A stretch of 64,000 bases of DNA from a virus. Shown here one piece after another: positions 2,947 through 60,283 of the stretch. The stretch lies in the UHGV virus genome UHGV-0039337. One strand, written 5' to 3'. Position numbers and translations under genes: made by a program. Position 1 is the stretch's first letter, and each line of letters begins with the position of its first letter. The notes under the pieces were generated by a model that was not told the DNA's origin, did not search any database, and saw only the letters and a list, made by a program, of their open reading frames with translations.

Positions 2947-5900
2947 ATGTCTCGTTATTTGTGGCCGTTAGGTAGTAATTACAATAATGAATATATGGAT
3001 ACTGATGACTTCTTAAAAAATTGCCGAACAGTTGATAAACACGGAAATTACGTTAATATTAAATGGAGAGTACAACCAGGTTTTGTGCCTTTTAACTATA
3101 TAACTAATCATTATCCGCTTGAAGGACAATCAGAACAAATAGAAGCTAGTGGTATTTATTCAGAAGAAGGATTAGCATTAGATCCTTTCTTTAGAGGTTA
3201 TTACTTTTCAGATGAATATATGAGTGTACACGCTGAATCTCGTAAGAGAGTATTTGGTGGAGAAGGAGTAAGGTTAACAAAGCTTTACTATAGAATTAAT
3301 GATAATAAATGGATGGAATTATCTCCAGGATTAAAATTTATAGATTTCAATCTAACCAACAATGGTGATAAAATAGATATACAAGCCACTTATCAGGTAT
3401 GGACAATGGGTAATCCCCATAGTCCTATTCCGTTTATGTGGTTAGGAGATGAAGGCGGAGTTTATAATGATGGTAAAAATAAATTTACCGACTCTGTACC
3501 GATAAACCCTGGTAGAAAATATTCAGGTATGATTAACTATCATAAAGGTAAAGATTACAATGCAAGTTGGAAATTAAAAAATGTTAGTTGGTACGCTCCA
3601 GGTTCTACTATGTTAGAATCAAACTGGGCTTATCAAAACTCAATATTTTTTAGAAATGAAATATATAAAAAACATGGTAAGTATTTAGATACATGGAGTG
3701 AAGAATTAAACTGTCAAAAATTCAATGAAGAATTTATGGATGCACCTCCAGGATATTGGACTTTTAGTTGGAGTTCTGGTTGGAACTATAATTACAGTAG
3801 ATATAATACTTATGACACTACAAGTAAATGGTGGAAAAGTCCATATAAAACTAGAAAAGGTATATGGTGGGTTTATGAAAAAACATATACTGATTCTTTC
3901 GTAGCTTCTGATTTATACAGTTATTCCAAAAAAGAAAAAGTTAAAGATGTATCTTTTAAAGTATTGCCAATGGATAGAAATTGGACAAGAACAAAATGGC
4001 TTAACGGAACAAAAGGACAAATAGTTATTAATTTTAAAGGGCCATATGAAGCTTTTGTTGATATATATGCAAAACAATTGGTATACTCAACAGAAGTAGA
4101 GACACTATTAAAATCAAATGTTCGTATAACTAGTTATGGTGATAATAAAATAGATATAAGGTTTACGGATTATCCTGAATTGTATCGTTCTAAAGATATA
4201 GTATATTATATTAAAATATATCCTTCCGATGTAAACGATAAAAAATGCGAATATGAATTAAGCGATATATCGTATTTATCTCTTCTTAAATATGGTTCAC
4301 ATTATTATAATGATGAACCACCATGGATATCAAATGTACAAATAAAACGTATAGATAGTGCAGACGATATGCCTAAAGATTTTGATAAAAAAATCGATTA
4401 CGATTATTACTGGTCAGAAAATGAACGCATAAATGAAGAATGGATTAAGAATAAAGAACTGTATCAAATAACTTGGGATATACCTAAAGATCCGGATAAT
4501 GATATTGTAGATTATACATATATTACTGATAAAGGTAATTTAAGTGATGTAACCTTTTCTCCATCAGAAAATTATACAGTTGAATATGGTAGACAAAATG
4601 ATTGGACTTTGAGATATAGAAGAGGTCAAGAAGAAAGCAGTAATGAAAATGCAACTTTACAAGATGTGCAAGAAACAAATATAAAATATGATTCACGTAA
4701 AGAAAAGCTATATTCAAAGGATAATTTTGCATTATATCGTATACCATCTAAACGTTTTATTAAAGACGATAAAGGTAACTTTATAGATCCATTAAATTTA
4801 TGGATAATACCACACGATGGTAATAATAATAATTATTATTATGGTACTAGAGTAAATTTACTACATGTAGATAAAGCGCCAATAGTTTTAGAGGTACTAG
4901 ATAATAAAAATGAATTGAATGATGCTGGCAAACTTAAATTATTTCATGGAAATTATATAAATGCAACAGTAGATATAAAGATTCATTTATTTATGTCCGA
5001 TAAACCTCATGATAAGAGTACAGGTAAATATCTGGGAACAATTTATGAAGGTAAATTAGAGCCAGGATATACTACTAAAACTATAAATGCATATAGTAAA
5101 ATTAGCAATAATAAAAGAATCAAAAGAGGACACTATATTAAGTATGCTATAGAGTGTAAAAATCTTGATCAAAATTTCGATCCATATGCTACTGATGCAT
5201 GGGATTTAGCAGAAGGATATCATTTATTCAACTGCTTACCAACACCAGTAACTCCTTTTATATGTGAAAATAAAATAAATTTATTTGAAGATAAAAAAGC
5301 AACAATAGCATGGAATGAATCTATAGATAATGATAATGAACCTGTATCTTATATACTATATATAGCAGCTGTTAATAAGCCAGAAATGAATAAGTATACT
5401 GATCATTTTTGGATTAATGGAGATCAAGATGAGAATTATGAAAAGAGAAAATTCTGCAAAAAGGTAGATGTAGGTACAACATTGCCTAGTAAAGATTTTC
5501 CTTATCAACTTGATTTATCAGAATTTGAAGAGAACGACGGCATTAAAATATGGATAACTGCTAAAGATAATACTAGTTCTATTAGATTCTTAACTGGTAA
5601 TACGTTAGATATAAGTAATTTAAGTGTTCGTTTATATCCACCTCAAATTATAACTACTGATGCAAGAGCCATAGGATTATTAGGAGAAGACATGATTGAT
5701 GGAGATAGTGGATATGTTAAAGTATGTCAAGTCAATAATGAAGCTGAATTAGCTACTGTTACATTACATGCCATATGTAAAAAGATGAGCGGACCTGAAA
5801 AAGGTGATATGAAATTATTTGAAAATATAGCTACATGGAATCTTAATAGTGGTGAATGGTCACCTAATACTAAGATTAATTTTAAAGTAGCATTTGGTAA

Positions 5901-6195
5901 AGAATGGTCCAATAGTGAAGTAAGATATTTTGCAGTATCTACTACTAAATCAGGATTAAGCAGTTATGATTCAGATGAAATTACTACTGATGCTTATGAT
6001 ATATGGATAGATGGACACGTATATAATGAAGAGCCTAATGTATCTATCATAAGACGTAATAAACAAAAAAGTAACTTACATAAAAATGCATATATAGATT
6101 GGAGCTATATGATAGATGAACGCTTCACTGATAAAAATACAATTACTATAGTGGATGGAGCATATAATCCTGTAGTACCTAAGTTATTCTATTAA
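2947..6195 (+). CDS. Large virion structural protein (baseplate/fibre-like) with recurring GSHYYNDEPP and DPDND motifs.
   Basis: 1082-aa ORF with a GGAGG RBS at 2934-2938. The motifs LLKYGSHYYNDEPPW and WDIPKDPDNDIVDY recur in the ORF at 7425. Confidence 0.6.
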   Translation: MSRYLWPLGSNYNNEYMDTDDFLKNCRTVDKHGNYVNIKWRVQPGFVPFNYITNHYPLEGQSEQIEASGIYSEEGLALDPFFRGYYFSDEYMSVHAESRKRVFGGEGVRLTKLYYRINDNKWMELSPGLKFIDFNLTNNGDKIDIQATYQVWTMGNPHSPIPFMWLGDEGGVYNDGKNKFTDSVPINPGRKYSGMINYHKGKDYNASWKLKNVSWYAPGSTMLESNWAYQNSIFFRNEIYKKHGKYLDTWSEELNCQKFNEEFMDAPPGYWTFSWSSGWNYNYSRYNTYDTTSKWWKSPYKTRKGIWWVYEKTYTDSFVASDLYSYSKKEKVKDVSFKVLPMDRNWTRTKWLNGTKGQIVINFKGPYEAFVDIYAKQLVYSTEVETLLKSNVRITSYGDNKIDIRFTDYPELYRSKDIVYYIKIYPSDVNDKKCEYELSDISYLSLLKYGSHYYNDEPPWISNVQIKRIDSADDMPKDFDKKIDYDYYWSENERINEEWIKNKELYQITWDIPKDPDNDIVDYTYITDKGNLSDVTFSPSENYTVEYGRQNDWTLRYRRGQEESSNENATLQDVQETNIKYDSRKEKLYSKDNFALYRIPSKRFIKDDKGNFIDPLNLWIIPHDGNNNNYYYGTRVNLLHVDKAPIVLEVLDNKNELNDAGKLKLFHGNYINATVDIKIHLFMSDKPHDKSTGKYLGTIYEGKLEPGYTTKTINAYSKISNNKRIKRGHYIKYAIECKNLDQNFDPYATDAWDLAEGYHLFNCLPTPVTPFICENKINLFEDKKATIAWNESIDNDNEPVSYILYIAAVNKPEMNKYTDHFWINGDQDENYEKRKFCKKVDVGTTLPSKDFPYQLDLSEFEENDGIKIWITAKDNTSSIRFLTGNTLDISNLSVRLYPPQIITTDARAIGLLGEDMIDGDSGYVKVCQVNNEAELATVTLHAICKKMSGPEKGDMKLFENIATWNLNSGEWSPNTKINFKVAFGKEWSNSEVRYFAVSTTKSGLSSYDSDEITTDAYDIWIDGHVYNEEPNVSIIRRNKQKSNLHKNAYIDWSYMIDERFTDKNTITIVDGAYNPVVPKLFY

Positions 6196-6231
6196 AATAA
6201 AATATAAATAATATGGAGATGATAAGAAAAA

Positions 6232-7413
6232 ATGAGCGGCAGTATTTCAGTAAACGGTTCTACATCTTTGGGGGTAATAACAAGTCCCCCTTCTTTTTCA
6301 TTCGATATAACTAGCAATAAATCAACAGGAGTTAATTATTATTTAGATGATACATCTTATTGGGTAGGAGGGCAAGCTATTGGTTTTGATGAATGGGGCG
6401 GTGGAACTACTACAAGAAACGAATCAATGTCTCAATCGACATGGAATAATCTTGAAGATGGAGAACATACTTTATATATAAAAGGTATTAATGGTGAAAA
6501 TACAGCAAGTATAACGTTTATAAAGAATAATAGTAATGCTCCTGATCCATTACCTCCTTCTTATAATCCACCTGTATATAATCCACCTATATATGATCCA
6601 TCTTCATGGTATTATCCTCATTCATCTGACACTATACCTCCTCCTTCATATCCTAACTTTAAGGATAATGAAGTAGTAAAAATGGGTATATTATGCAAAA
6701 TAACTAATCGTAATGGAGAAATTAAAACAGAATACATTAAACAAAATAAAAATTATTATGAAGATTGGGATATTAATACTATCCCTCGTTATAGAGATGG
6801 TTCAGTTATATCAGCATACGAGAGTGGTCCATATTGGAGTCGTGAACAAATTAAGTTTGTAGATGCAGATAGTTCCCTTAATGAATGGACATGGATAAAA
6901 ACTACTATCGATAAGAAAACTTTTTTAATTTCTACTACTTTTGCTCCACAAGATTATTTATATCCATTAAATGAAATCATAGTATCATTAAAAGGTACAT
7001 TGTTTAAGCTTAGATCATTAACTTCAAAAGAATGGTTTAAAGTTGATAAGTCAATATTGGAGAAAATTGACTGGGATGGATATTATACTCCAACTAGAAC
7101 ATTTATGGGAAAAGATGATAGCTATTATAACTTTTTGCTTGATTATACAGATGATGAATTTAATAAATGGATGGATAATAATTTAGTTAAACTAAAAGAA
7201 GAACATCATGAAGCCATAACATATATTCCTGAAAAAATGAAATCACAAGTAATATCTTCTCGTGTTTCAAAATGGGAATACTTTTCAGATTATTTGAATT
7301 TTAGCACAGTATCTACAGCAGTATCATGGATACCAGTATTAGAATTAATTAATACAAGTCCAAGTATAGTATTACCAGATAAAGATAAAGAAGATAAAGT
7401 AATACATTTATAG
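6232..7413 (+). CDS. Structural protein paralog: Pro-rich NPP/PPS linker followed by the conserved VKMG...W.WIKT.ID module.
   Basis: 393 aa. Shares DNEVVKMGIL...WTWIKTTID and ILEKIDWDGYYTPT with ORF1 (DESIVKMGML...WKWIKTEID; ILKKIDWNGFYTIT). Confidence 0.6.
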   Translation: MSGSISVNGSTSLGVITSPPSFSFDITSNKSTGVNYYLDDTSYWVGGQAIGFDEWGGGTTTRNESMSQSTWNNLEDGEHTLYIKGINGENTASITFIKNNSNAPDPLPPSYNPPVYNPPIYDPSSWYYPHSSDTIPPPSYPNFKDNEVVKMGILCKITNRNGEIKTEYIKQNKNYYEDWDINTIPRYRDGSVISAYESGPYWSREQIKFVDADSSLNEWTWIKTTIDKKTFLISTTFAPQDYLYPLNEIIVSLKGTLFKLRSLTSKEWFKVDKSILEKIDWDGYYTPTRTFMGKDDSYYNFLLDYTDDEFNKWMDNNLVKLKEEHHEAITYIPEKMKSQVISSRVSKWEYFSDYLNFSTVSTAVSWIPVLELINTSPSIVLPDKDKEDKVIHL

Positions 7414-37197: not shown

Positions 37198-40100
37198 ATG
37201 ATTAATATAAGTTTTATACATTGTCATGTTCATACAATTTATTCTATGCTCGACGGCTACTGTAAAATAGATGACTTAATAGAAAAAGCCAAAGAATATA
37301 ATATGTCTTCAATATGTATAACTGATCATGGTACACTTGCAGGTATTTATGAGTTTAATGATAAATGCAAAAAAGCAGGATTAAAACCTATATTAGGTAT
37401 TGAAGTATATCAAACTCATGACATATCAAAAATAATACTGCCAGTAGAAGAAAGAAAAAAGATAGCTTGGGATAAATATTTAGAAATAAACAATATAACA
37501 GATGAAAAAAGCCTAGGCAAGCTAACTAATAAGAAAAAAGCAGAACTAAGTTCAGAATATATATATGATACCAAAGGATATCATTTAATCTTAATAGCAA
37601 AAAACCAAACAGGTTGGAATAATCTCGTTAAGTTAAGTAGTAAAGCAAATGATATAGCAATGTTTAATGGTAAAGGGCATATAGATTATAATTTATTAAA
37701 GCAATATAGCGAAGGATTAATATGCACTACAGCATGTATAAGTTCTATGTTTAATCATGCATTATCTAACAATAATATGGATAAAGCTGTTAAGCATATA
37801 AAAATATTATTGGATATATTTCATGATGATTTATACATAGAGTTACAACCTTTAGAATGGAATAAGCAGGTTGAAATAAATAAAAAAGCTATTAAAATAG
37901 CTAAACAATATAATATTAAAACTATAGCAACTAGTGATGTACATTATACCAATTATGAAGATGATTATGAACACGATATATTATTATGTATAGGTACTGG
38001 CAAAACATATAACGACCCTAATAGAATGAAATACGATCATGAATATTGGTTTAGAAATGAAAACGAAATGATAGATGGTTTTAATAGAAGTAATTATACA
38101 AGTGAAGAGATGCAAGCTATTAAAACTGCTATAAATAATACAACATTATTAGCAGATACTGTAGAAGATAATATACAAGTAGGTAGCGATCATGAACTAT
38201 TACCAGAGGTAGATGTACCTGAAGGTTATACAACTAAATCATGGTTAAAGCGTCAATGCTGGACTAACTTATATAAATATCTAACAGACAATAACTTAAT
38301 GGATAAACGTTATATTTATGAGTCTAGATTAAAAGAAGAACTTGATGTAATAATAACTAAAGGTTTTGCTGGATATATGTTAATAGTTCAAGACATAATA
38401 AATATTGGTCAACAAGCTGGTTGTAGTTTTGGGCCTGGACGTGGTAGCGTTGGTGGTTGTCTTGTAGCCTTCTTGCTCGGCATAAGTAAAGGAATAGATC
38501 CTATTGAATATGGATTACTATTCTTTAGATTTTTAACTGTTTCTAGAACTGCAAATCCAGATATTGATAGCGACTGCAGTCAGGTTGATAGACAAAAACT
38601 ATTAAGAATAATAAATAATAAGTATCATAACACTAATGTTACTCAAGTAGGTACATTAACTACATTAGGAGTTAAAAATGGCGTTAAAGATGTCATGCGT
38701 GTATTGAATTATAGTTTTGCAGAATCAAATGCTGTATCTAAAAAATTAGATGAAATATATGCTGAACCAGATTTATCTTTTAAAAAGCTTGATAGTTTTG
38801 AATCTGAAGATCCAGAATTATATAAAAAATATAAAGAGTTAGAATCAGAATATCCTAACGTATTTAAGTTAGCACGTAAATTTAATGGATGTCCTAGAAA
38901 TATGGGAGTACATGCTGGAGGTGTAGGTATAACACCTACTCCAATAAATGATATATATCCTACTAGAAATATTGATGGTAAAAAAGTTACTGTATGGGAA
39001 AAAGATACAATAGAAAAAGCAGGAATCGTCAAAATAGATATGTTAGGATTAAAAACTATATCTGTAATAGAATTATGCTTAAAGTTTATAAAAAAGAATC
39101 ATGATATAGATATATCATTAAACGAACTTTATAATAATAAAGAAATACGTAATGATTCTAATGTATTTAATATGCTATCAGAAGGTAAAACTGATGGTGT
39201 ATTTCAATTTGAAAGTAACTTATTTAAAAATGCTTGTAAGAACGTTAAACCTACAGATATAAATGACTTAATAGCAATTACTGCATTTAATAGACCTGGC
39301 CCATTATCTGCCGGCTTCGATAAGAAATATGCTAATAGAAAAAATGGATTAGAACCTGTAAATTATCCTTTAGGTTGTGATGATATATTAGGTGATACAT
39401 ACGGATGTCTATTATATCAAGAACAATGTATGTTAATATCAAAAAAGGTAGCTGGCTTCGATGATAATCAGGCAGATACATATTTAAGAAAATCACTAGC
39501 CAAAAAGAAACGTGCTTTAATAGATCTTTGTAGACAGTGGTTTATATATGGAAAACCTGAACATGACGAATACGGATCACCTATAGAAGGTGGTATTAAT
39601 AGAGGATATGATGAACAAGAACTTAAAGACTTTTTCGATGAGTTAGAAGGGTACGCTAGTTACGTTTTTAATAAAAGTCATGCAGCGAGTTATAGTCTTC
39701 TAACAGTAATTAGTGCATGGTTAAAATATTATTATTCTGAAGAATTCTTTGCAGCTCTTCTTACTTATTCAGTTGATGAAAAAGCTGATTTATATAATGA
39801 TATATTAAGTAAACAATATGACATACATATAACTGTACCAGATATAAAGAACTTATCTGAAAATTATAATCCAACACAAGGTAAAATAGCATATGGAATA
39901 TCTAAAATAAAAGGAGTAGGTGCTACAGCAATATCTACTATATTAAATGCAGGACCATATGAAAGTGTAGAAGATTTTATAACTAAAGTAAATAAGTATG
40001 ATAAAGCACGTGGTAGTAAAAAAACTGTTAATAAAACAGCTATTATTGCTCTTATTAAAGCAGGAGCTTTTGACTCCTTGGGTGAAACTAATAGATTTAA

Positions 40101-40509
40101 ATTAATTAATCAAGCTTATAATGCACGTAAAGATAAAGACGAAAGACTTGATGAATCTACATGGTCAAAATCTTGTGCTCAAGCATTAGAAATAGAGGTA
40201 TTAAATACATCTATAACTTATCCATTAATATTTAATTCTGCTATGGATAAAGATATTATAACTTTAGAAAACTGTAGAATAATAAACGTTACTGAGAAAA
40301 AAGATAAAAATGGTAAACTTATGGCTTTTGTAAAAGTAAAAGTTAATGATATAGAACCAGTAGATGTTGTAGTATTTAGTAGTTTATATTTAAATAATTA
40401 TGATTTATTTGATGTTAGATATGGCGATGTTATAAATATAACAGGAGAAAAAGACGGAAAGAAATTAAAATTTAAGAAAGGAAGAAGAGAAAAGAAAGAA
40501 GATAATTAA
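37198..40509 (+). CDS. dnaE: DNA polymerase III alpha subunit (DnaE-type, PHP domain), full length (1103 aa).
   Basis: N-terminal PHP motif HCHVHTIYSMLDG...ITDHGTL. FGPGRGSVGGCLVAFLLGI...RFLTVSRTANPDIDSD. Catalytic-region MGVHAGGVGI and a C-terminal OB-like region. Confidence 0.85.
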   Translation: MINISFIHCHVHTIYSMLDGYCKIDDLIEKAKEYNMSSICITDHGTLAGIYEFNDKCKKAGLKPILGIEVYQTHDISKIILPVEERKKIAWDKYLEINNITDEKSLGKLTNKKKAELSSEYIYDTKGYHLILIAKNQTGWNNLVKLSSKANDIAMFNGKGHIDYNLLKQYSEGLICTTACISSMFNHALSNNNMDKAVKHIKILLDIFHDDLYIELQPLEWNKQVEINKKAIKIAKQYNIKTIATSDVHYTNYEDDYEHDILLCIGTGKTYNDPNRMKYDHEYWFRNENEMIDGFNRSNYTSEEMQAIKTAINNTTLLADTVEDNIQVGSDHELLPEVDVPEGYTTKSWLKRQCWTNLYKYLTDNNLMDKRYIYESRLKEELDVIITKGFAGYMLIVQDIINIGQQAGCSFGPGRGSVGGCLVAFLLGISKGIDPIEYGLLFFRFLTVSRTANPDIDSDCSQVDRQKLLRIINNKYHNTNVTQVGTLTTLGVKNGVKDVMRVLNYSFAESNAVSKKLDEIYAEPDLSFKKLDSFESEDPELYKKYKELESEYPNVFKLARKFNGCPRNMGVHAGGVGITPTPINDIYPTRNIDGKKVTVWEKDTIEKAGIVKIDMLGLKTISVIELCLKFIKKNHDIDISLNELYNNKEIRNDSNVFNMLSEGKTDGVFQFESNLFKNACKNVKPTDINDLIAITAFNRPGPLSAGFDKKYANRKNGLEPVNYPLGCDDILGDTYGCLLYQEQCMLISKKVAGFDDNQADTYLRKSLAKKKRALIDLCRQWFIYGKPEHDEYGSPIEGGINRGYDEQELKDFFDELEGYASYVFNKSHAASYSLLTVISAWLKYYYSEEFFAALLTYSVDEKADLYNDILSKQYDIHITVPDIKNLSENYNPTQGKIAYGISKIKGVGATAISTILNAGPYESVEDFITKVNKYDKARGSKKTVNKTAIIALIKAGAFDSLGETNRFKLINQAYNARKDKDERLDESTWSKSCAQALEIEVLNTSITYPLIFNSAMDKDIITLENCRIINVTEKKDKNGKLMAFVKVKVNDIEPVDVVVFSSLYLNNYDLFDVRYGDVINITGEKDGKKLKFKKGRREKKEDN

Positions 40510-54420: not shown

Positions 54421-56313
54421 TTACGCTCCTATACTATTTATTATTATTTTATTATCATCTGTAAACTTTCCTTTAAAGTTTATAGTTTTGTCTTTTTTTA
54501 AATTACTTTTATATTTATCTAGATTGAATAATAAAGCTTCATAATTACCTTCTTTAGTATCTAATGATATAAAAGCATATCTCTTTCCTGATTTAGCTTT
54601 ACGTTTAGTCACTTTTGTTATAATAGCTTGGCCACTTACATAAATATCATTATATTTAAGGTCTTCCAGATTACAACACTTATTATGAATATAATTAGCT
54701 TGACATAAAATTAATTCTATCTCATCTTCTGATGCATATAGTTCCAGGTTAGTATCTTTATTAATGAATATAGAGTATTTAGGTGGATCTGGATGTTTTT
54801 TCTTGGCTGAAAGATAATATAATTCTTCATATAATTCTATAACATTAGAGCCAAATGCTCCTATTGCTATCATGCTATTTAATGCTTTTGTATTACATAT
54901 ACTTTTATTTACATGTTTATATATATGAGCCACTAAAGAATCATCTTTATTTTCTTTTTCTTTATTTAGCCAATAAGTAGCAGCATTATAAGCGTTCTCA
55001 GATACATTTGCAAGGCAGCAGAAGCCGAGTCTAATCCCCTCTGTTTCTACTGTACATTTGTATTTTGATTTAGTTATATCAAGAGGTAGAAATTTAATAC
55101 CTACTTTCATACATTCATTTTGTATTGTTTTAAATTTAGCTTTACGTTCATCAGTTTTACCTGATTTATTATTATACATACAAGTTAAAGTTGCCGCATA
55201 AAATTCTTTAGGATAGTAAATTTTATAATATGCTGTTTCATAACAAGTTAAAGCATAAGCTACAGCATGAGATTTGTTGAAACTATATTTCCCTGAATCT
55301 AATATTAATTGAAATATTTTTTCAAATATATCATCAGTCATAATATTTTTACTTAACTCTTTTAATTCTGCTTTATATGAAGCTATTTTATCAAATTTTT
55401 TTTTGCTAGATGATTTCATAAGCGAATATGCTTCATGCAATGGCAATCCCATATTTGCACAACATTGCATTAATTCTTCTTGATAAATCATAACTCCATT
55501 AGTTGTCTTAGTAGCTTTATCATAAGCTGGATGTATATATTCTATATTTTCTTTGCCTTCTTGTATTTTCATATAATGTTCATCGAGCCCTGATTGAATA
55601 CAAGGGCCACGGACAAGAGCAAGACAATCAGCAAGTTGTTCTATATTACGTGGGTTTAATCTTCTCATGCGTTGTTTGTAAGTATTACTGCCTATTTGAA
55701 ATAGCCCTGTAGTATTACGAGAACAGATTAAATCCCATACTTTTTTATCATTTAATGGATCAAATTCTATATCTATTTTATGACCTGTAAGTTTTTCACA
55801 TTCGCTTAATATACATAAAGTATTTAATCCTAAATAATCATATTTTACTAAGGCCTGACTTTCTGCATCATGTAAATCAAGGGCTGTAGCATTTAATTCT
55901 TTTTTGTCTTGTCTAACCATTGGTGCTACATCAGATACTTTAGATTTAACTATTAATGTACCTGCTGCATGTATAGAAGTATGACATGGTAAACCTTCAA
56001 GCTTCATAGCCATTTCAAATACTTCTGGATATATTTCTTGCCACTCTCTAAGTTCTGGTACTATCTCTAATGATTCTTCTATTGATAAATCGCTTTGCTT
56101 TTCTGTGCCATCTTCAGATTCTTCATATACACATTGAGGTATTAGTTTAGCTATTTTATCTTCGGTCTTTAAGTCTATATTATATAATTTGCATACGCTT
56201 CTTATTGATGATCTTGCTTTACGTATACTAAAAGTAGATACAGCTGCACAATGATCAAGTCCATAAGTATCTAAAGTATACTTAAACATAATATCTCTAT
56301 AGTCACTAGGCAC
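54421..56313 (-). CDS. C-terminal portion (630 aa) of a second DnaE-like DNA polymerase III alpha. Continues from 56327..57577 after a +1 frame change.
   Basis: Begins within PDIDIDVPSDYRD (the canonical DnaE 'PDFDVDF'). Contains the GLPCHTSIHAAGTLIV catalytic motif. The frame is open upstream to 56355. Confidence 0.7.
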   Translation of the reverse strand: MPSDYRDIMFKYTLDTYGLDHCAAVSTFSIRKARSSIRSVCKLYNIDLKTEDKIAKLIPQCVYEESEDGTEKQSDLSIEESLEIVPELREWQEIYPEVFEMAMKLEGLPCHTSIHAAGTLIVKSKVSDVAPMVRQDKKELNATALDLHDAESQALVKYDYLGLNTLCILSECEKLTGHKIDIEFDPLNDKKVWDLICSRNTTGLFQIGSNTYKQRMRRLNPRNIEQLADCLALVRGPCIQSGLDEHYMKIQEGKENIEYIHPAYDKATKTTNGVMIYQEELMQCCANMGLPLHEAYSLMKSSSKKKFDKIASYKAELKELSKNIMTDDIFEKIFQLILDSGKYSFNKSHAVAYALTCYETAYYKIYYPKEFYAATLTCMYNNKSGKTDERKAKFKTIQNECMKVGIKFLPLDITKSKYKCTVETEGIRLGFCCLANVSENAYNAATYWLNKEKENKDDSLVAHIYKHVNKSICNTKALNSMIAIGAFGSNVIELYEELYYLSAKKKHPDPPKYSIFINKDTNLELYASEDEIELILCQANYIHNKCCNLEDLKYNDIYVSGQAIITKVTKRKAKSGKRYAFISLDTKEGNYEALLFNLDKYKSNLKKDKTINFKGKFTDDNKIIINSIGA

Positions 56314-56326
56314 ATCTATATCTATG

Positions 56327-57577
56327 TCAGGGTATTGTGCCCTTGCGGTGTATACTTAAAAATCTATCAAACATAAGATTATATTTAATAGAATCTACTT
56401 TGGTTATTTGAAGTAAATAAGCAACAATAGATCCGCATACGCTGCCTCTTCCAGGGCCCATTTTTGCTCCAATCTTATTCATATATTGTATTAGATCTCT
56501 TGTTATTAAAAAATAAGAACTAAATCCTAAATCATCTATAACTTTAAGCTCTTCATACATTCTATCAACGTATTGTGCTGGATTTTTAATTTTATATTGT
56601 ATTTGATCTAATCTTTCTAAACATAATTTTTCTATATAAGTTTTAGGAATATAACCTGTAGGACATTCAAATTCTGGAAGGTTTAACTCTTCTTGGTTGA
56701 AATCATATGATTCAACTTTATTAGATAAGTCCATAGTATTGTCTAATGCTTGATTAATTATATCTGCATTATACAATTCACTATTAAAAGAATTAAAGAT
56801 TTCATCTCTAGACATCATATAATATATTTTATCTGCATATATACTTTCATCTTCATTTTCTGGTGCTTTTAAATTACGCGTAATTCTTATATGAAAATCA
56901 TGAGTTTTCCAATCTTCCTTATTTATATAATGCACATCATTAGTAGCAATGAGTTTAATGTTTTTCTCTTCTGCTATATTAATCATTGCATTATTAACTT
57001 TAATTTGTTCATCAAAATTACCTGGTTGAATTTCTAAATATAAGTCATCTCTGAACATATTATATAATTCTTCAATATGATTAATAGCTTGTTCATTTTC
57101 ATTGTTTATAATAAGTTGAGGGGCATATCCTCCTACACAAGCTGTAGTACAGATAAGCCCCTCAGTATAGTCTTTTATATGTTCTAAATCTATACGTGGT
57201 TTATAATAATAATATTCAACAGATGCATCTGATACTATTTTCAATAAGTTAGATATGCCTGTTTTATTTTTAGCTATTAATACCATATGATATAACTTTT
57301 TATGTTCACTGTCTTTAATAGTACAGTCTTCACATAAATATATTTCACAGCCTATAAGTGGTTTAATATTATTGTTTATACACTCATAATAGAATCCATA
57401 CATATTACTTAAAGATCCGTGATCTGTTATAGCTATGGATTTCATATTAAGTTTTTTAGCTTTAGCAATTATATCTTTATTTGTAGCGATGGAATCTCCT
57501 ACCGATCCTTTTGTAGTATGCAAATGAGTTATGCAATAATTATTATAATAAGAAGTCATCGTTATCATCTTCTTCAT
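56327..57577 (-). CDS. N-terminal portion (416 aa) of the second DnaE-like polymerase (PHP domain). Ends at a UGA inside the conserved RFLxxxR motif.
   Basis: ITHLHTTKGSVGD...ITDHGSL is the PHP motif. MGPGRGSVCGSIVAYLL...MFDRFLSIHRKGTIP is followed by a stop. Confidence 0.7.
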   Translation of the reverse strand: MKKMITMTSYYNNYCITHLHTTKGSVGDSIATNKDIIAKAKKLNMKSIAITDHGSLSNMYGFYYECINNNIKPLIGCEIYLCEDCTIKDSEHKKLYHMVLIAKNKTGISNLLKIVSDASVEYYYYKPRIDLEHIKDYTEGLICTTACVGGYAPQLIINNENEQAINHIEELYNMFRDDLYLEIQPGNFDEQIKVNNAMINIAEEKNIKLIATNDVHYINKEDWKTHDFHIRITRNLKAPENEDESIYADKIYYMMSRDEIFNSFNSELYNADIINQALDNTMDLSNKVESYDFNQEELNLPEFECPTGYIPKTYIEKLCLERLDQIQYKIKNPAQYVDRMYEELKVIDDLGFSSYFLITRDLIQYMNKIGAKMGPGRGSVCGSIVAYLLQITKVDSIKYNLMFDRFLSIHRKGTIP

Positions 57578-57857: not shown

Positions 57858-58253
57858 TTATTCCTTTCTATATTCTTTACATTCTTGATTATTATATTCT
57901 AATATTTCTCTTAATATTGATCTATGACATATAATATCATTTTTTTCATAACAGATAAGGAATATAGTATATCCTTCATTATTTAAATCTATTATTTCTT
58001 TTAATCCATCAATGAAAAATGGATTGTCAAATGACTCATCTATATATTTTTGTCTATACTCTTTCCAATCAATACTACCATCTTTATACTTGGCTAATGT
58101 AAGTTCCGTGGGCGCAAGTTGAGGCGCCCACTCTATATTATATTTTTTTACGTTTATAGTATTTCTAGGTTTCCATCTAGTTATTAAAAATTTCTTAGTT
58201 GTATCATCATTTGGTAGATTTTTTAAGTTAGACAAATAAGTTGTGTATATCAT
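57858..58253 (-). CDS. DUF488-like protein (131 aa).
   Basis: RWKPRN...WAPQLAPTELTL...W.EYRQKYIDE resembles the DUF488 (YeaO-like) signature RxWPRG...WxxxLAPSxxL. Confidence 0.5.
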   Translation of the reverse strand: MIYTTYLSNLKNLPNDDTTKKFLITRWKPRNTINVKKYNIEWAPQLAPTELTLAKYKDGSIDWKEYRQKYIDESFDNPFFIDGLKEIIDLNNEGYTIFLICYEKNDIICHRSILREILEYNNQECKEYRKE

Positions 58254-58549
58254 TAATGACAGCCACCATTACAAACTCCATTACAATCTCTACTACATGT
58301 ATGTGCTTTTGATTCATTTAAGTTATGAGAAAACTTTTCTTTTCTTGAATCATACTTTTCTTGCATCATACTTCCAGTAGAACCATAACCATCTGCACCT
58401 CTTGTAGTTTCATCTAATTCATCTACTATAAAAGGTTGTGCTTCAAGTACTGGACATAATACTAATTGCGCAATTTTAGCATATTTCTTTAATACAAATG
58501 GTTCTGTTCCTATATTTTCTAGTTCAATACCTATTTCTCCTCTATATTT
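58253..58549 (-). CDS. dut: dUTPase exon 2 (motifs III-V) with an unusual Cys-rich C-terminal extension of about 40 aa.
   Basis: KYRGEIGIELENIGTEPF...IAQLV...RGADGYGSTG. The tail is CSRDCNGVCNGGCH. Confidence 0.75.
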   Translation of the reverse strand, partial: KYRGEIGIELENIGTEPFVLKKYAKIAQLVLCPVLEAQPFIVDELDETTRGADGYGSTGSMMQEKYDSRKEKFSHNLNESKAHTCSRDCNGVCNGGCH

Positions 58550-59401
58550 CAATTTGTTATGTATAGGCTCTTTATCCTATACTCTCCTACTTTCGTAGAA
58601 GTATCGGACTATATCATTAACTCTCATATAGAGAGCAGAGCGGGGCGCTCGTGTCGGTTTTATTGTTTACCTTACTCAACCGTTAGTCTCTGAACCTTCC
58701 GTATACTTTATAGGCTTCTACGGCTTGGCTGCTGATTAGCATATCTTTCGACTTAGCCTTCCAGCAATTCACCCCGTTTAAAGACTCCAAATTTATTTTG
58801 CTTTATTATATTTTCCTAAAATGTCATGTAATTTGGAATGCTTTGATCTTGATAATATAATTAAATTAGTAGGATCATTATTTATTTTATTTTCATCTAT
58901 ATGATGTACATCATAATTTGGATTTAAATACCATTTGCCATCTATTAATACTGCACAAGATTCAGTAAGTAAATACTGTTCTGCAATTAGCCTATGCTCT
59001 CTAATTCTTCCGAATTTATTTGCAAAAGGATGATCGGGAACATAAACATATATGTAATCATTATACAGTATTTTATTTTGAGTAAAACTAGCATTCAATG
59101 GACCTTTTAATCCATATTGATGATTTCCTTCTCCTTTCATATAATTACTTTTATTGATAATATTACACTCTTCTGAACAAGTTATCATATCTGGATGTTT
59201 TAGTCTTTTAAGTCTTGAAGGTTTAACATAAAATTTTGTGCCGCATATACAACATGAAACATTTGGTTTTTTATTCCATTTATTATACATGTCAGCACAC
59301 GCATGACTACAAACATTTTTTCTATGCTTTTTTATATTATCTGTTTCGTATTCTTCATTACAATAATCGCAATGTCTTAACAATTAAGCGACATCTCCCT
59401 T
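58550..59401 (-). mobile_element. Group I self-splicing intron (IA-type core, 852 nt) inserted in dut between the codons for ...GTIDS and KYRGEI. Carries an HNH homing-endonuclease ORF.
   Basis: Conserved core elements on the minus strand: P AAUUGCUGGAAGG (58757-58769), Q AAUCAGCAGCC (58727-58737), R GUUCAGAGACUA (58684-58695), S GAUAUAGUCC (58606-58615). The 5' exon ends in U (..GACUCU) and the intron ends in G (..AAUUG). Confidence 0.8.
58793..59383 (-). CDS. Intron-encoded HNH homing endonuclease (196 aa).
   Basis: N-terminal Cys-rich Zn-binding region. C-terminal HNH motif VHHIDENKINNDPTNLIILSRSKHSKLH. TTG start 18 nt after the 5' splice site. Confidence 0.8.
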   Translation of the reverse strand: MLRHCDYCNEEYETDNIKKHRKNVCSHACADMYNKWNKKPNVSCCICGTKFYVKPSRLKRLKHPDMITCSEECNIINKSNYMKGEGNHQYGLKGPLNASFTQNKILYNDYIYVYVPDHPFANKFGRIREHRLIAEQYLLTESCAVLIDGKWYLNPNYDVHHIDENKINNDPTNLIILSRSKHSKLHDILGKYNKAK

Positions 59402-59740
59402 AGAGTCTATAGTACCTGGAGCATTAGGTATTCTTATTTTAGTTTTTAAACCATTACCACTTGTAGGTCTAGCTTGCAATTCTGTGCCTAATGGTATAGA
59501 TGATGCCCAACCAGTGCATGCTAATACTGTTTCTCCTGGCATTATTATCCATGAGGAAACTCCTTTTGCAAAATCTTTATTATCCTCATATGGTTTTTTG
59601 TCTTCATTGAGTCTTTTTAATGCTATTGCAAACACATCCATTCCGCTATCTCCTGGATGTGCATATTTTAATTCTATAGCATCTTCTCTTAATCTTTTTA
59701 CTTTAATAGGCACTTGCGTATAAAAATTCAGTTTAATCAC
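59402..59740 (-). CDS. dut: dUTPase exon 1 (motifs I-III, N-terminal part).
   Basis: LKYAHPGDSGMDVFA (motif I-like) and ARPTSGNGLKTKIRIPNAPGTIDS (motifs II/III). The apparent ORF reads through into the intron for 5 codons before its stop. Confidence 0.75.
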
Positions 59741-59743
59741 TCC

Positions 59744-60283
59744 TTATTTTTTTAATTTTTTACTAACTAAATAGTCTATATATTCTATACCGAAGTTATC
59801 AAACTTACGGCATTTGTCAATTAATTCATTATAGGTCATCCACTTAGCATTCTTAGGTGCATCATATATTTCTTTAATTTTAGCACGATATACTATAGCT
59901 ATATCGTCTGGATTATTTTTTATAGTTTTAATAAATCCAAAATCTTTAACAGTTTTGAGGTCTTTTACTCCACACCTATTAGCATTATATGCTACTATAG
60001 ATTTGATAGGTTCATAATAAAAGATACTTTCTTTAATATAAGCTAAACCATTTCCATTAAATGAGTAACAACCATTACTCATTTTAAATACTAAGTAATG
60101 GTTGTTACTTTCTATTATTAGATATGGTATTATTCTATAGAATAATTTACAGTCATAAGTTACATTTCTATATAGCATATAATTATTATACTTAAGCCAT
60201 AAATTAGACTCGTCTATAGTTAATCCATTATCAAAAGATAGTTTGTATTTTGGTATAACTAATATTTCATTATTCGTCTTCAT
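59744..60283 (-). CDS. Hypothetical protein (179 aa).
   Basis: ORF with a 14-nt overlap with the upstream gene. Confidence 0.45.
   Translation of the reverse strand: MKTNNEILVIPKYKLSFDNGLTIDESNLWLKYNNYMLYRNVTYDCKLFYRIIPYLIIESNNHYLVFKMSNGCYSFNGNGLAYIKESIFYYEPIKSIVAYNANRCGVKDLKTVKDFGFIKTIKNNPDDIAIVYRAKIKEIYDAPKNAKWMTYNELIDKCRKFDNFGIEYIDYLVSKKLKK

Follow-up and report, generated by a model that had tools for sequence, protein, structure and literature searches.

The td intron of phage T4 with I-TevI and the DNA-polymerase intron of phage SPO1 with I-HmuI, an HNH nicking enzyme, are the classical phage group I introns with homing endonucleases. In both, the intron lies within a conserved catalytic motif of a nucleotide-metabolism or replication gene, and a free-standing endonuclease open reading frame (ORF) is looped out of the ribozyme. 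Here we describe an element of this general design in the dUTPase gene (dut) of an uncultured jumbo phage, found in a 64,000-nt stretch of the virus genome UHGV-0039337 (henceforth the window). It differs from the T4 and SPO1 introns in its host gene, in the position of its ORF, which occupies the P1 loop, and in the sequence family of its endonuclease. Its closest described relatives are the dut introns of crAss-like phages. The dUTPase coding sequence of crAssphage (Carjivirus communis BK010471.1), KP06_gp34, is annotated as a two-piece join that "contains intron insertion," and cr1_1 (NC_055873) and cr50_1 (NC_055868) are annotated with the succession dUTPase, HNH endonuclease, dUTPase. An intron-encoded HNH endonuclease has been reported to split the crAssphage dUTPase (PMC7551546), and group I introns occur at high density in some crAss-like phages (PMC7886860). 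We conclude, with a probability of about 90%, that dut in the window is interrupted within the codons of motif III by a mobile group I intron encoding an HNH homing endonuclease. This intron is a known lineage in a different phage group, and neither a new type of element nor the first dut intron. The view put forward in an earlier note on this DNA, that introns are uncommon in phage dut genes, therefore has to be tempered, since a homologous intron interrupts the same dut codon in crAssphage and other crAss-like phages.

The likeness to the introns of crAssphage, cr1_1, and cr50_1 extends from the host gene to the ribozyme. All four introns interrupt dut at one point, downstream of the codon next after the motif III Asp and upstream of xYRGE, and all four have their ORF in the loop of P1 and their guide sequence immediately ahead of J1/3-P3. 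The HNH proteins are homologous (34-39% identity over 94-98% of their length, E down to 6e-29), the best match among deposited phages being crAssphage KP06_gp35, a "putative intron-encoded HNH endonuclease" (39% identity over 94%, E = 6e-29). The ribozyme cores are homologous as well (~74% nucleotide identity over 113-128 nt by blastn), with J1/3, P4, P7, J8/7, and L9.1 sequences in common, and the crAssphage copy scores 65.9 bits against the Rfam group I intron model RF00028. The host, in contrast, is unrelated: a phage of ~270 kb with DnaE-type polymerase genes here, vs. ~100 kb in Crassvirales. The introns also differ in size (852 nt here, 920-1016 nt in the three crAss-like phages), in the lengths of P5, P6, P8, and P9, in the initiation codon of the HNH ORF (here a TTG right against the stop of the exon frame, in cr1_1 an ATG ~70 nt into the intron), and in the exon 1 codon at the splice site, which is Ser here, Tyr in crAssphage, and Cys in cr50_1, the guide sequence changing to match.

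A closely related core (72-80% identity by blastn) is found in the introns of two genes for flavin-dependent thymidylate synthase (thyX), in the crAss-like phages cr111_1 and Kolpuevirus "frurule," and in the DNA-polymerase intron of Felixounavirus phages; P3, P7.1, P9, and P9.1 of these introns covary with those of the window intron. Like the dut intron, they reside in nucleotide-metabolism or replication genes, but their host genes and guide sequences are different, and the ORF is placed elsewhere: in P5 in cr111_1, between P7 and P3' in "frurule," and outside the intron in Felixounavirus. While the thyX introns have a P2 hairpin, no convincing P2 was found in the window intron. Further afield, the annotated phage collection contained no DNA near-identical to the window and no split dUTPase among the best 40 of 1460 dUTPase matches, a dUTPase-alignment scan of IMG/VR returned only distant (34-39%) and uninterrupted genes, and introns and dUTPase both come up in papers on the Bacillus phages Moonbeam, Silence, and Basilisk-like phages, without mention of an intron in dut.

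The split gene and its insert lie on the minus strand of the window and comprise the following features, each given with the evidence that defines it.

59402..59740, minus strand: dUTPase exon 1 (ORF list, PHROG 135 profile, alignment to full-length homologues)
58550..59401, minus strand: group I intron, 852 nt (Rfam RF00028, splice sites, guide pairing, intron-less alleles)
59381..59401, minus strand: intron 5' leader (sequence)
58793..59383, minus strand: putative HNH homing-endonuclease ORF, 196 aa (Pfam HNH_3, PHROG, crAssphage homologue)
58783..58792, minus strand: internal guide sequence 5'-AUUU GGAGUC-3' (pairing and covariation)
58561..58776, minus strand: ribozyme core (Rfam alignment, helix mapping, fold, covariation)
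58253..58549, minus strand: dUTPase exon 2 (Pfam PF00692 E = 1e-10, PHROG 135 profile, alignments)

As the earlier note had proposed, the two minus-strand ORFs that flank the insert encode the two halves of a dUTPase. The first (59384-59740) continues past ...IPNAPGTIDS for another five codons (KGDVA) before a TAA ends it, whereas the second (58253-58552) reads (M)KYRGEIGIELEN...RGADGYGSTG. Exon 1 proper consists of 113 codons when counted from the GTG at 59740 (an alternative GTG start lies at 59713) and contains motifs I and II together with the N-terminal half of motif III (...NAPGTIDS). Exon 2, which starts with AAAUAU and has 98 codons plus a stop, completes motif III with its other half, KYRGEIG, and supplies motifs IV (KIAQLVL) and V (RGADGYGSTG) as well as a tail rich in Cys (HTCSRDCNGVCNGGCH). 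Both exons are free of stops and frameshifts, and they match adjoining stretches of the dUTPase profile PHROG 135, exon 1 positions 147-227 and exon 2 positions 229-320. The last base of exon 1 is a U (59402), and the last base of the insert is a G (58550), in agreement with the junction initially suggested.

When the exons are joined in silico at ...GGUACUAUAGACUCU|AAAUAUAGAGGAGAA, the frame is restored and the product is a continuous dUTPase of 211 aa from the GTG at 59740, or 202 aa from that at 59713, close to the 210 aa expected beforehand. This spliced protein matches the trimeric dUTPase family PF00692 with E = 7e-16 (58.6 bits vs. a threshold of 22) and displays all five dUTPase motifs in order (GDSGMD, RPTSG, GTIDSKYRGE, KIAQLV, and RGADGYGSTG). 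Residues 65-173 align without a gap to the best PDB dUTPase, 8y1q_A (E = 9e-24), straight through the junction NAPGTIDS|KYRGE, where the spliced query NAPGTIDSKYRGEIG faces NAPGTIDADYRGEVK in 8y1q. A search of 5.8 billion proteins (alignments A1 and A2) retrieved uninterrupted homologues with 77-91% identity, among them P0001-P0004, which read NAPGTIDSKYRGEIGIELEN as the predicted splice product does and in the alignment match its junction motif NAPGTIDSKYRGEIG. The same search retrieved exon-sized fragments from other genomes. Five (P0036, P0039, P0057, P0061, and P0066) end in ...DSK G[DN]VA*, the same run-on into the same intron, while P0106 is an exon 2 fragment.

Gene callers report exon 1 with 118 aa (GTG 59740) or 109 aa (GTG 59713). 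The upstream GTG is found 3 nt past the stop of an upstream 179-aa ORF, within an AAGGAG (59741-59746 region), and because of this tight gene junction it is uncertain which of the two is the true start of dut. At the other end of the gene, the dut stop overlaps the ATG of the neighboring DUF488 gene, both at 58253 (58250-58256 region). The protein has two peculiarities not seen in the solved dUTPases aligned, an insert of ~25 aa after motif I and, after motif V, the Cys-rich tail (58253-58303, minus strand; consensus HxCSxxCxGxCxGGCH), which is conserved in most close full-length homologues and might bind metal.

As for the insert, the structure strengthens the original assignment to group I. 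The insert is 852 nt long (58550-59401), as first claimed, and harbors the 196-aa HNH ORF (58793-59383) followed by a 243-nt tail that is indeed enriched in G+C (41.6%, compared with 26.4% for the HNH ORF and 28.5% for the window) and in which all four core elements named in the earlier note, AAUUGCUGGAAGG, AAUCAGCAGCC, GUUCAGAGACUA, and GAUAUAGUCC, were found. Searched over 58450-59500, RF00028 matches the minus strand at 58584-58830 along the full model (positions 1-253) with 80.8 bits and E = 1e-20, well above the gathering score of 50 bits. The intron consists, in order, of the 5' leader, the HNH ORF in the P1 loop, the guide sequence, the ribozyme core from P3 to P9.1, and a terminal G (omega-G) at 58550. 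The leader contains a Shine-Dalgarno-like AAGGGAG (59401-59395), and the exon 1 frame runs on through it with KGDVA to the TAA at 59386-59384. J1/3 precedes P3, P9.1 is followed by an 11-nt tail and the terminal G, and the helices map as follows.

58776-58770 / 58647-58641, minus strand: P3
58766-58761 / 58735-58730, minus strand: P4
58757-58739, minus strand: P5-P5a, with a GAAA loop
58729-58694, minus strand: P6-P6a
58690-58684 (GAGACUA, with a bulged A) / 58611-58606 (UAGUCC), minus strand: P7
58682-58655, minus strand: P7.1
58635-58621, minus strand: P8
58601-58584, minus strand: P9, with a GAAA loop
58582-58561, minus strand: P9.1

The minimum-free-energy fold of the 243-nt core recovers all non-pseudoknotted helices (P4, P5, P6a, P7.1, P8, P9, and P9.1), with z = -2.6 relative to shuffled sequences. 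By analogy, we take the G-C pair beside the bulged A in P7 to be the guanosine-binding pair, and we presume that the P7.1-type extension is of the kind typical of subgroup IA. An intein or a group II intron was rejected, the insert being no in-frame protein insertion, lacking a reverse transcriptase, and possessing a full group I core. Neither an nhmmer profile of the intron family nor regular expressions for the core motifs detected a second copy of the intron in the window.

The element that ties this core to the split gene is the internal guide sequence, which was missing from the earlier note and is identified here together with P1 and P10. It is located not beside the 5' splice site but 610 nt from the start of the intron and immediately past the HNH stop codon, which places the ORF in the P1 loop. 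Its GGAGUC (58788-58783) pairs with the last six nucleotides of exon 1, GACUCU (59407-59402), giving a P1 helix whose splice-site pair is a U.G wobble. P10 arises between the guide's AUUU (58792-58789) and AAAU (58549-58546), the four bases with which exon 2 opens. The two helices together make up a 10-bp complement to the ligated exons GACUCU|AAAU, and the proposed splice sites are supported because the intron's own guide pairs with exactly these sites. Two other candidates for the 5' part of the structure were set aside. A local P1 hairpin (CUCU with the GGAG of the AAGGGAG leader) is conserved neither in the variant introns of loci L010 and L011 (AAAGGAA) nor in the crAss introns, and was rejected because the distal guide is conserved and covaries instead. 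The second, a hairpin to which Rfam assigns model positions 1-40 in the 3'-terminal part of the HNH ORF, is mismatched in places and not conserved.

We compared the window with the near-identical dut-site introns of L001-L008, L012, L013, and L041, with the variant of L010 and L011 (961 nt, ~76% identical, with a different and larger P4-P5 domain), and with the introns of crAssphage, cr1_1, and cr50_1. Across these five intron lineages, both P1 and P10 covary with exon sequence. The U.G wobble in P1 and the terminal G are kept in all eight dut-intron sequences compared. At position -2, P1 has a C-G pair where the exon codon is Ser UCU (the window, L010/L011, and cr1_1), a G-C pair where it is Cys UGU (cr50_1), and an A-U pair where it is Tyr UAU (crAssphage). 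P10 likewise tracks exon 2, with AAAU/AUUU in the window, GUUUA/UAAAU in L010/L011, and GGUUA/UAACU in cr1_1 and cr50_1, so that from lineage to lineage two of its pairs are altered in both strands as exon 2 changes. P10 is weaker in crAssphage, where three of five positions are paired.

The core covaries as well. MAFFT alignments of ORF-deleted introns (A3 and A4) were discarded, since they misaligned the variable loops and the 3' strand of P3, and for this reason the helix segments were extracted by hand. Equal-length segments were concatenated into a set (A5) of 37 pairs from 11 related introns, which also included the two thyX introns and the DNA-polymerase intron. Standard pairs occupy 96.5% of the cells in this set, compared with 34-43% when partners are slid by one to three columns, and 19 pairs show changes on both sides, compared with 2-7 for slid partners; not one of 500 column shuffles matched the observed pairing values. 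In P3, changes on both sides affect five of seven pairs, whereas P4 and P7 are invariant and consequently uninformative. A separate observation concerns the variant: in L010 (1353-1560) and the same region of L011, the P4-P5 domain is replaced by a different segment, 109 nt longer, which looks like a domain swap between introns, the variant otherwise keeping P1/P10, P3, P6-P9.1, and the HNH ORF.

These results bear on two readings in which no intron is removed. One holds that dut is split by a free-standing HNH gene, with the half-polypeptides reassembling or the gene being dead. Gene callers do list three separate ORFs, the exon 1 frame is closed by a stop of its own after five codons of insert, and a TTG at 58552 could serve as a start for exon 2. 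Against this, the gene is broken within motif III (GTIDS|KYRGE), the complete group I core of the insert scores above the Rfam threshold, both exons are intact and align to homologues in all insert-carrying lineages, and the covariation of the guide with both exon ends goes unexplained unless the RNA is spliced, which together make this reading highly improbable. The other, that the insert is a degenerate remnant that has lost splicing and dut a pseudogene, has nothing specific in its favor. It is hard to reconcile with core helices that are all kept through compensatory changes, with the constant wobble and terminal G at the splice sites, or with exons devoid of stops and frameshifts, and we give it almost no credence. 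A group I intron that splices is the reading we retain.

The ORF within this intron has the hallmarks of an HNH endonuclease. It carries VHHIDENKINNDPTNLIILSRSKHSKLH, a C-terminal HNH motif (VHHIDEN…N…H; VHHIDEN...NLIILSRSKHSKLH), and two N-terminal Cys clusters, CDYC…CSHAC and CCICG…CSEEC, which suggest zinc-finger DNA-binding modules. Residues 155-183 match Pfam PF13392 (HNH_3) with 28.0 bits against a cut-off of 24.8, and 10 of the 11 PHROG families matched, with E down to 2e-16, are annotated as HNH endonuclease. An IMG/VR scan with the protein found no relative. Every copy inspected has an intact ORF and retains HH…N…H, and the ratio of nonsynonymous to synonymous divergence (dN/dS) is 0.06-0.15, values that are those of a protein under purifying selection. 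Its TTG start (59383-59381) abuts the TAA of the run-on exon 1 frame (UAAUUG), and in the L010/L011 variant a GTG start overlaps the stop (UAGUG), an arrangement that suggests coupling to dut translation by termination-reinitiation.

Mobility is indicated by the way in which intron and flanks are distributed. Uninterrupted homologues sit in the syntenic loci L009 and L042. L009, whose exon 1 is 95% identical, has no intron and reads ...GGAACTATAGATTCT|AAATATAGAGGAGAA (...GATTCT|AAATATAGAGGAGAA) at the junction, while L042, without the intron, and L041, with it, are 97.4% identical over 2273 bp from the insertion site onward. Among the proteins, the intron-less alleles P0001-P0035 are interleaved with the intron-bearing fragments. 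Intron and flanks, moreover, have diverged to different extents: when the window is compared with L012/L041, identity is 80-88% in the flanking genes, 94% in the HNH part of the intron, and 98-99% in the ribozyme; between the window and L001, the flanks are 99-100% identical, yet the synonymous divergence (dS) of the HNH ORF is 0.15. Presence and absence at 97% identity, together with this discordance, form the pattern expected of a homing element among co-circulating phages, and these sequence patterns indicate that the intron has been mobile recently.

It could be argued instead that the intron splices but has become a fixed resident, its HNH protein inactive or recruited as a maturase. Homing is deduced here from sequence patterns rather than from observation, the HNH start codon is weak, and the intron is held by all eight loci (L001-L008) fetched through an exact match to the neighboring DUF488 protein, which is present on 19 contigs. 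An immobile intron would not, however, be expected to be present or absent between genomes that are 97% identical, to be far more alike between lineages than the genes around it, to keep the catalytic motif of its ORF under strong purifying selection, or to have relatives at the same site in an unrelated phage order. We hence regard this reading as improbable and favor an intron that remains mobile.

Several points nevertheless weigh against a mobile, self-splicing intron and temper our confidence. Rfam scans of the whole 64-kb window, whether at the gathering threshold or by E-value, produced no match, nor did a 20-kb multi-locus scan, and only searches of ~1 kb recover the intron. We attribute this to speed filters, since introns at other loci were likewise missed in a large scan and recovered in ~1-kb scans; negative large scans are thus uninformative for such introns and were not counted as evidence. 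It follows as a practical aside that routine whole-contig Rfam scans can overlook ORF-bearing group I introns in AT-rich phage DNA. The L010 variant reaches only 28.8 bits against RF00028. The hand-picked helix segments tilt the covariation test somewhat toward the proposed structure, although the covariation of P1 and P10 is independent of hand extraction, because these strands are fixed by the splice sites and by a position directly upstream of J1/3. The HNH ORF starts at a TTG with the Shine-Dalgarno-like sequence 11 nt upstream, so that its expression may be weak, and the HNH protein has no sequence match among PDB chains from which the mode of cleavage (nick or double-strand break) or the target could be deduced. 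Finally, splicing and nuclease activity are deduced from sequence and comparison.

From the anatomy of the intron, its covariance-model match, its covariation, including that of P1 and P10, the restored frame, the selection on the ORF, and the discordance between intron and flanks, we infer splicing in vivo, the activity and target of the nuclease, and translational coupling, and we propose the following scheme. The dut gene would be transcribed as a single pre-mRNA, in which the 10-nt guide after the HNH ORF would form P1 with the final six bases of exon 1, leaving U.G at the site of cleavage, and P10 with the opening four bases of exon 2. The P3-P9 core would fold, and a free guanosine, bound at the P7 G-C pair beside the bulged A, would attack the 5' splice site. 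The terminal G (58550) would then occupy the guanosine site and the exons would be ligated, yielding an mRNA for a 211-aa dUTPase with its GTIDSKYRGE motif intact. The HNH protein, made from unspliced RNA or from the excised intron, would act on relatives that infect the same cell, cutting or nicking their intron-less dut alleles in the conserved sequence for motif III, and recombinational repair would copy the intron into the cut allele.

The split gene belongs to a replication module with the order Gam, DnaG, HU, dut, DUF488, DnaE, SNF2. The window also encodes tail-fiber, endolysin, DnaB, RecJ, and DNA-polymerase proteins, and the contigs with the exact DUF488 protein reach ~270 kb and come from metagenomes of animal-gut type, one related locus being labeled pig gut. 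Because of this gene content, the length of these contigs, and the lack of a near relative among deposited phage genomes, we assign the window to an uncultured jumbo phage. Besides the split dnaE (54421-57577), there is a second large DNA-polymerase gene on the plus strand (37198-40509; PHROG 405, E = 4e-270), and the phage thus seems to carry two polymerase genes in the window.

The dnaE gene, which encodes the alpha subunit of Pol III, shows two oddities of its own. First, it is spread over two frames (ORFs 56327-57577 and 54421-56313, minus strand) because it has one base more than the gene of L001, L002, and L006, which is intact and encodes 1046 aa. The extra base is also present in L003 and L005, two independent assemblies that are identical to the window in that stretch. 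A +1 shift at CCC_UGA_C (56332-56326, minus strand) restores ...KGTIP|DIDIDVP..., comparable to KGSVPDIDLDF in the intact L001 gene, and CCC_UGA is documented as a sequence at which +1 shifts are particularly likely and of which several phages make use (PMC3082878). This sequence may therefore be a programmed +1 frameshift in the replicative polymerase of some strains only. Second, dnaE of L009 (~5440-6642) is interrupted after GPGRGSVCG by core-like elements (AAATTGCGGGAA... and GTTCAGAGACTA) and an HNH ORF of 288+ aa (zf-FCS/HNH), an arrangement that, judged by visual inspection of the core-like motifs, resembles an HNH-encoding group I intron distinct from the one in dut. No such insert interrupts the window at this site, although a divergent dnaE exon patch around it (LITRDLIQYMNKIGAKMGPGRGSVCGS), which could be a co-conversion tract, is common to the window and L009 and not found in L001.

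What is known of group I introns and homing endonucleases in general is unchanged by this finding. For annotation, it means that three separately called ORFs in at least a dozen metagenomic contigs constitute one dUTPase gene and a mobile intron, a split gene that automated pipelines and a whole-window Rfam scan miss. For the intron family, it provides a well-supported case of a homing intron aimed at the part of dut that encodes motif III, with P1 and P10 covarying in nature, and it shows that one intron lineage inhabits both crAss-like phages and a jumbo phage unrelated to them and bears signs of having spread recently. A bolder idea, which we put forward tentatively and consider doubtful, is that a single lineage is moving now between Crassvirales and the DnaE-encoding jumbo phage, always at the same dut codon, together with translationally coupled expression of its endonuclease. 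Since homing needs co-infection, spread across phage orders would imply a shared host range, and, if this were true, would point to Bacteroidales-type hosts for a jumbo phage that is otherwise without host assignment. The endonuclease may be produced by ribosomes that run from dut exon 1 into the unspliced intron and reinitiate after termination (at UAA-UUG here and at UAGUG in the variant). Production of the nuclease would then be tied to unspliced RNA, with translation and the formation of P1 competing with each other.

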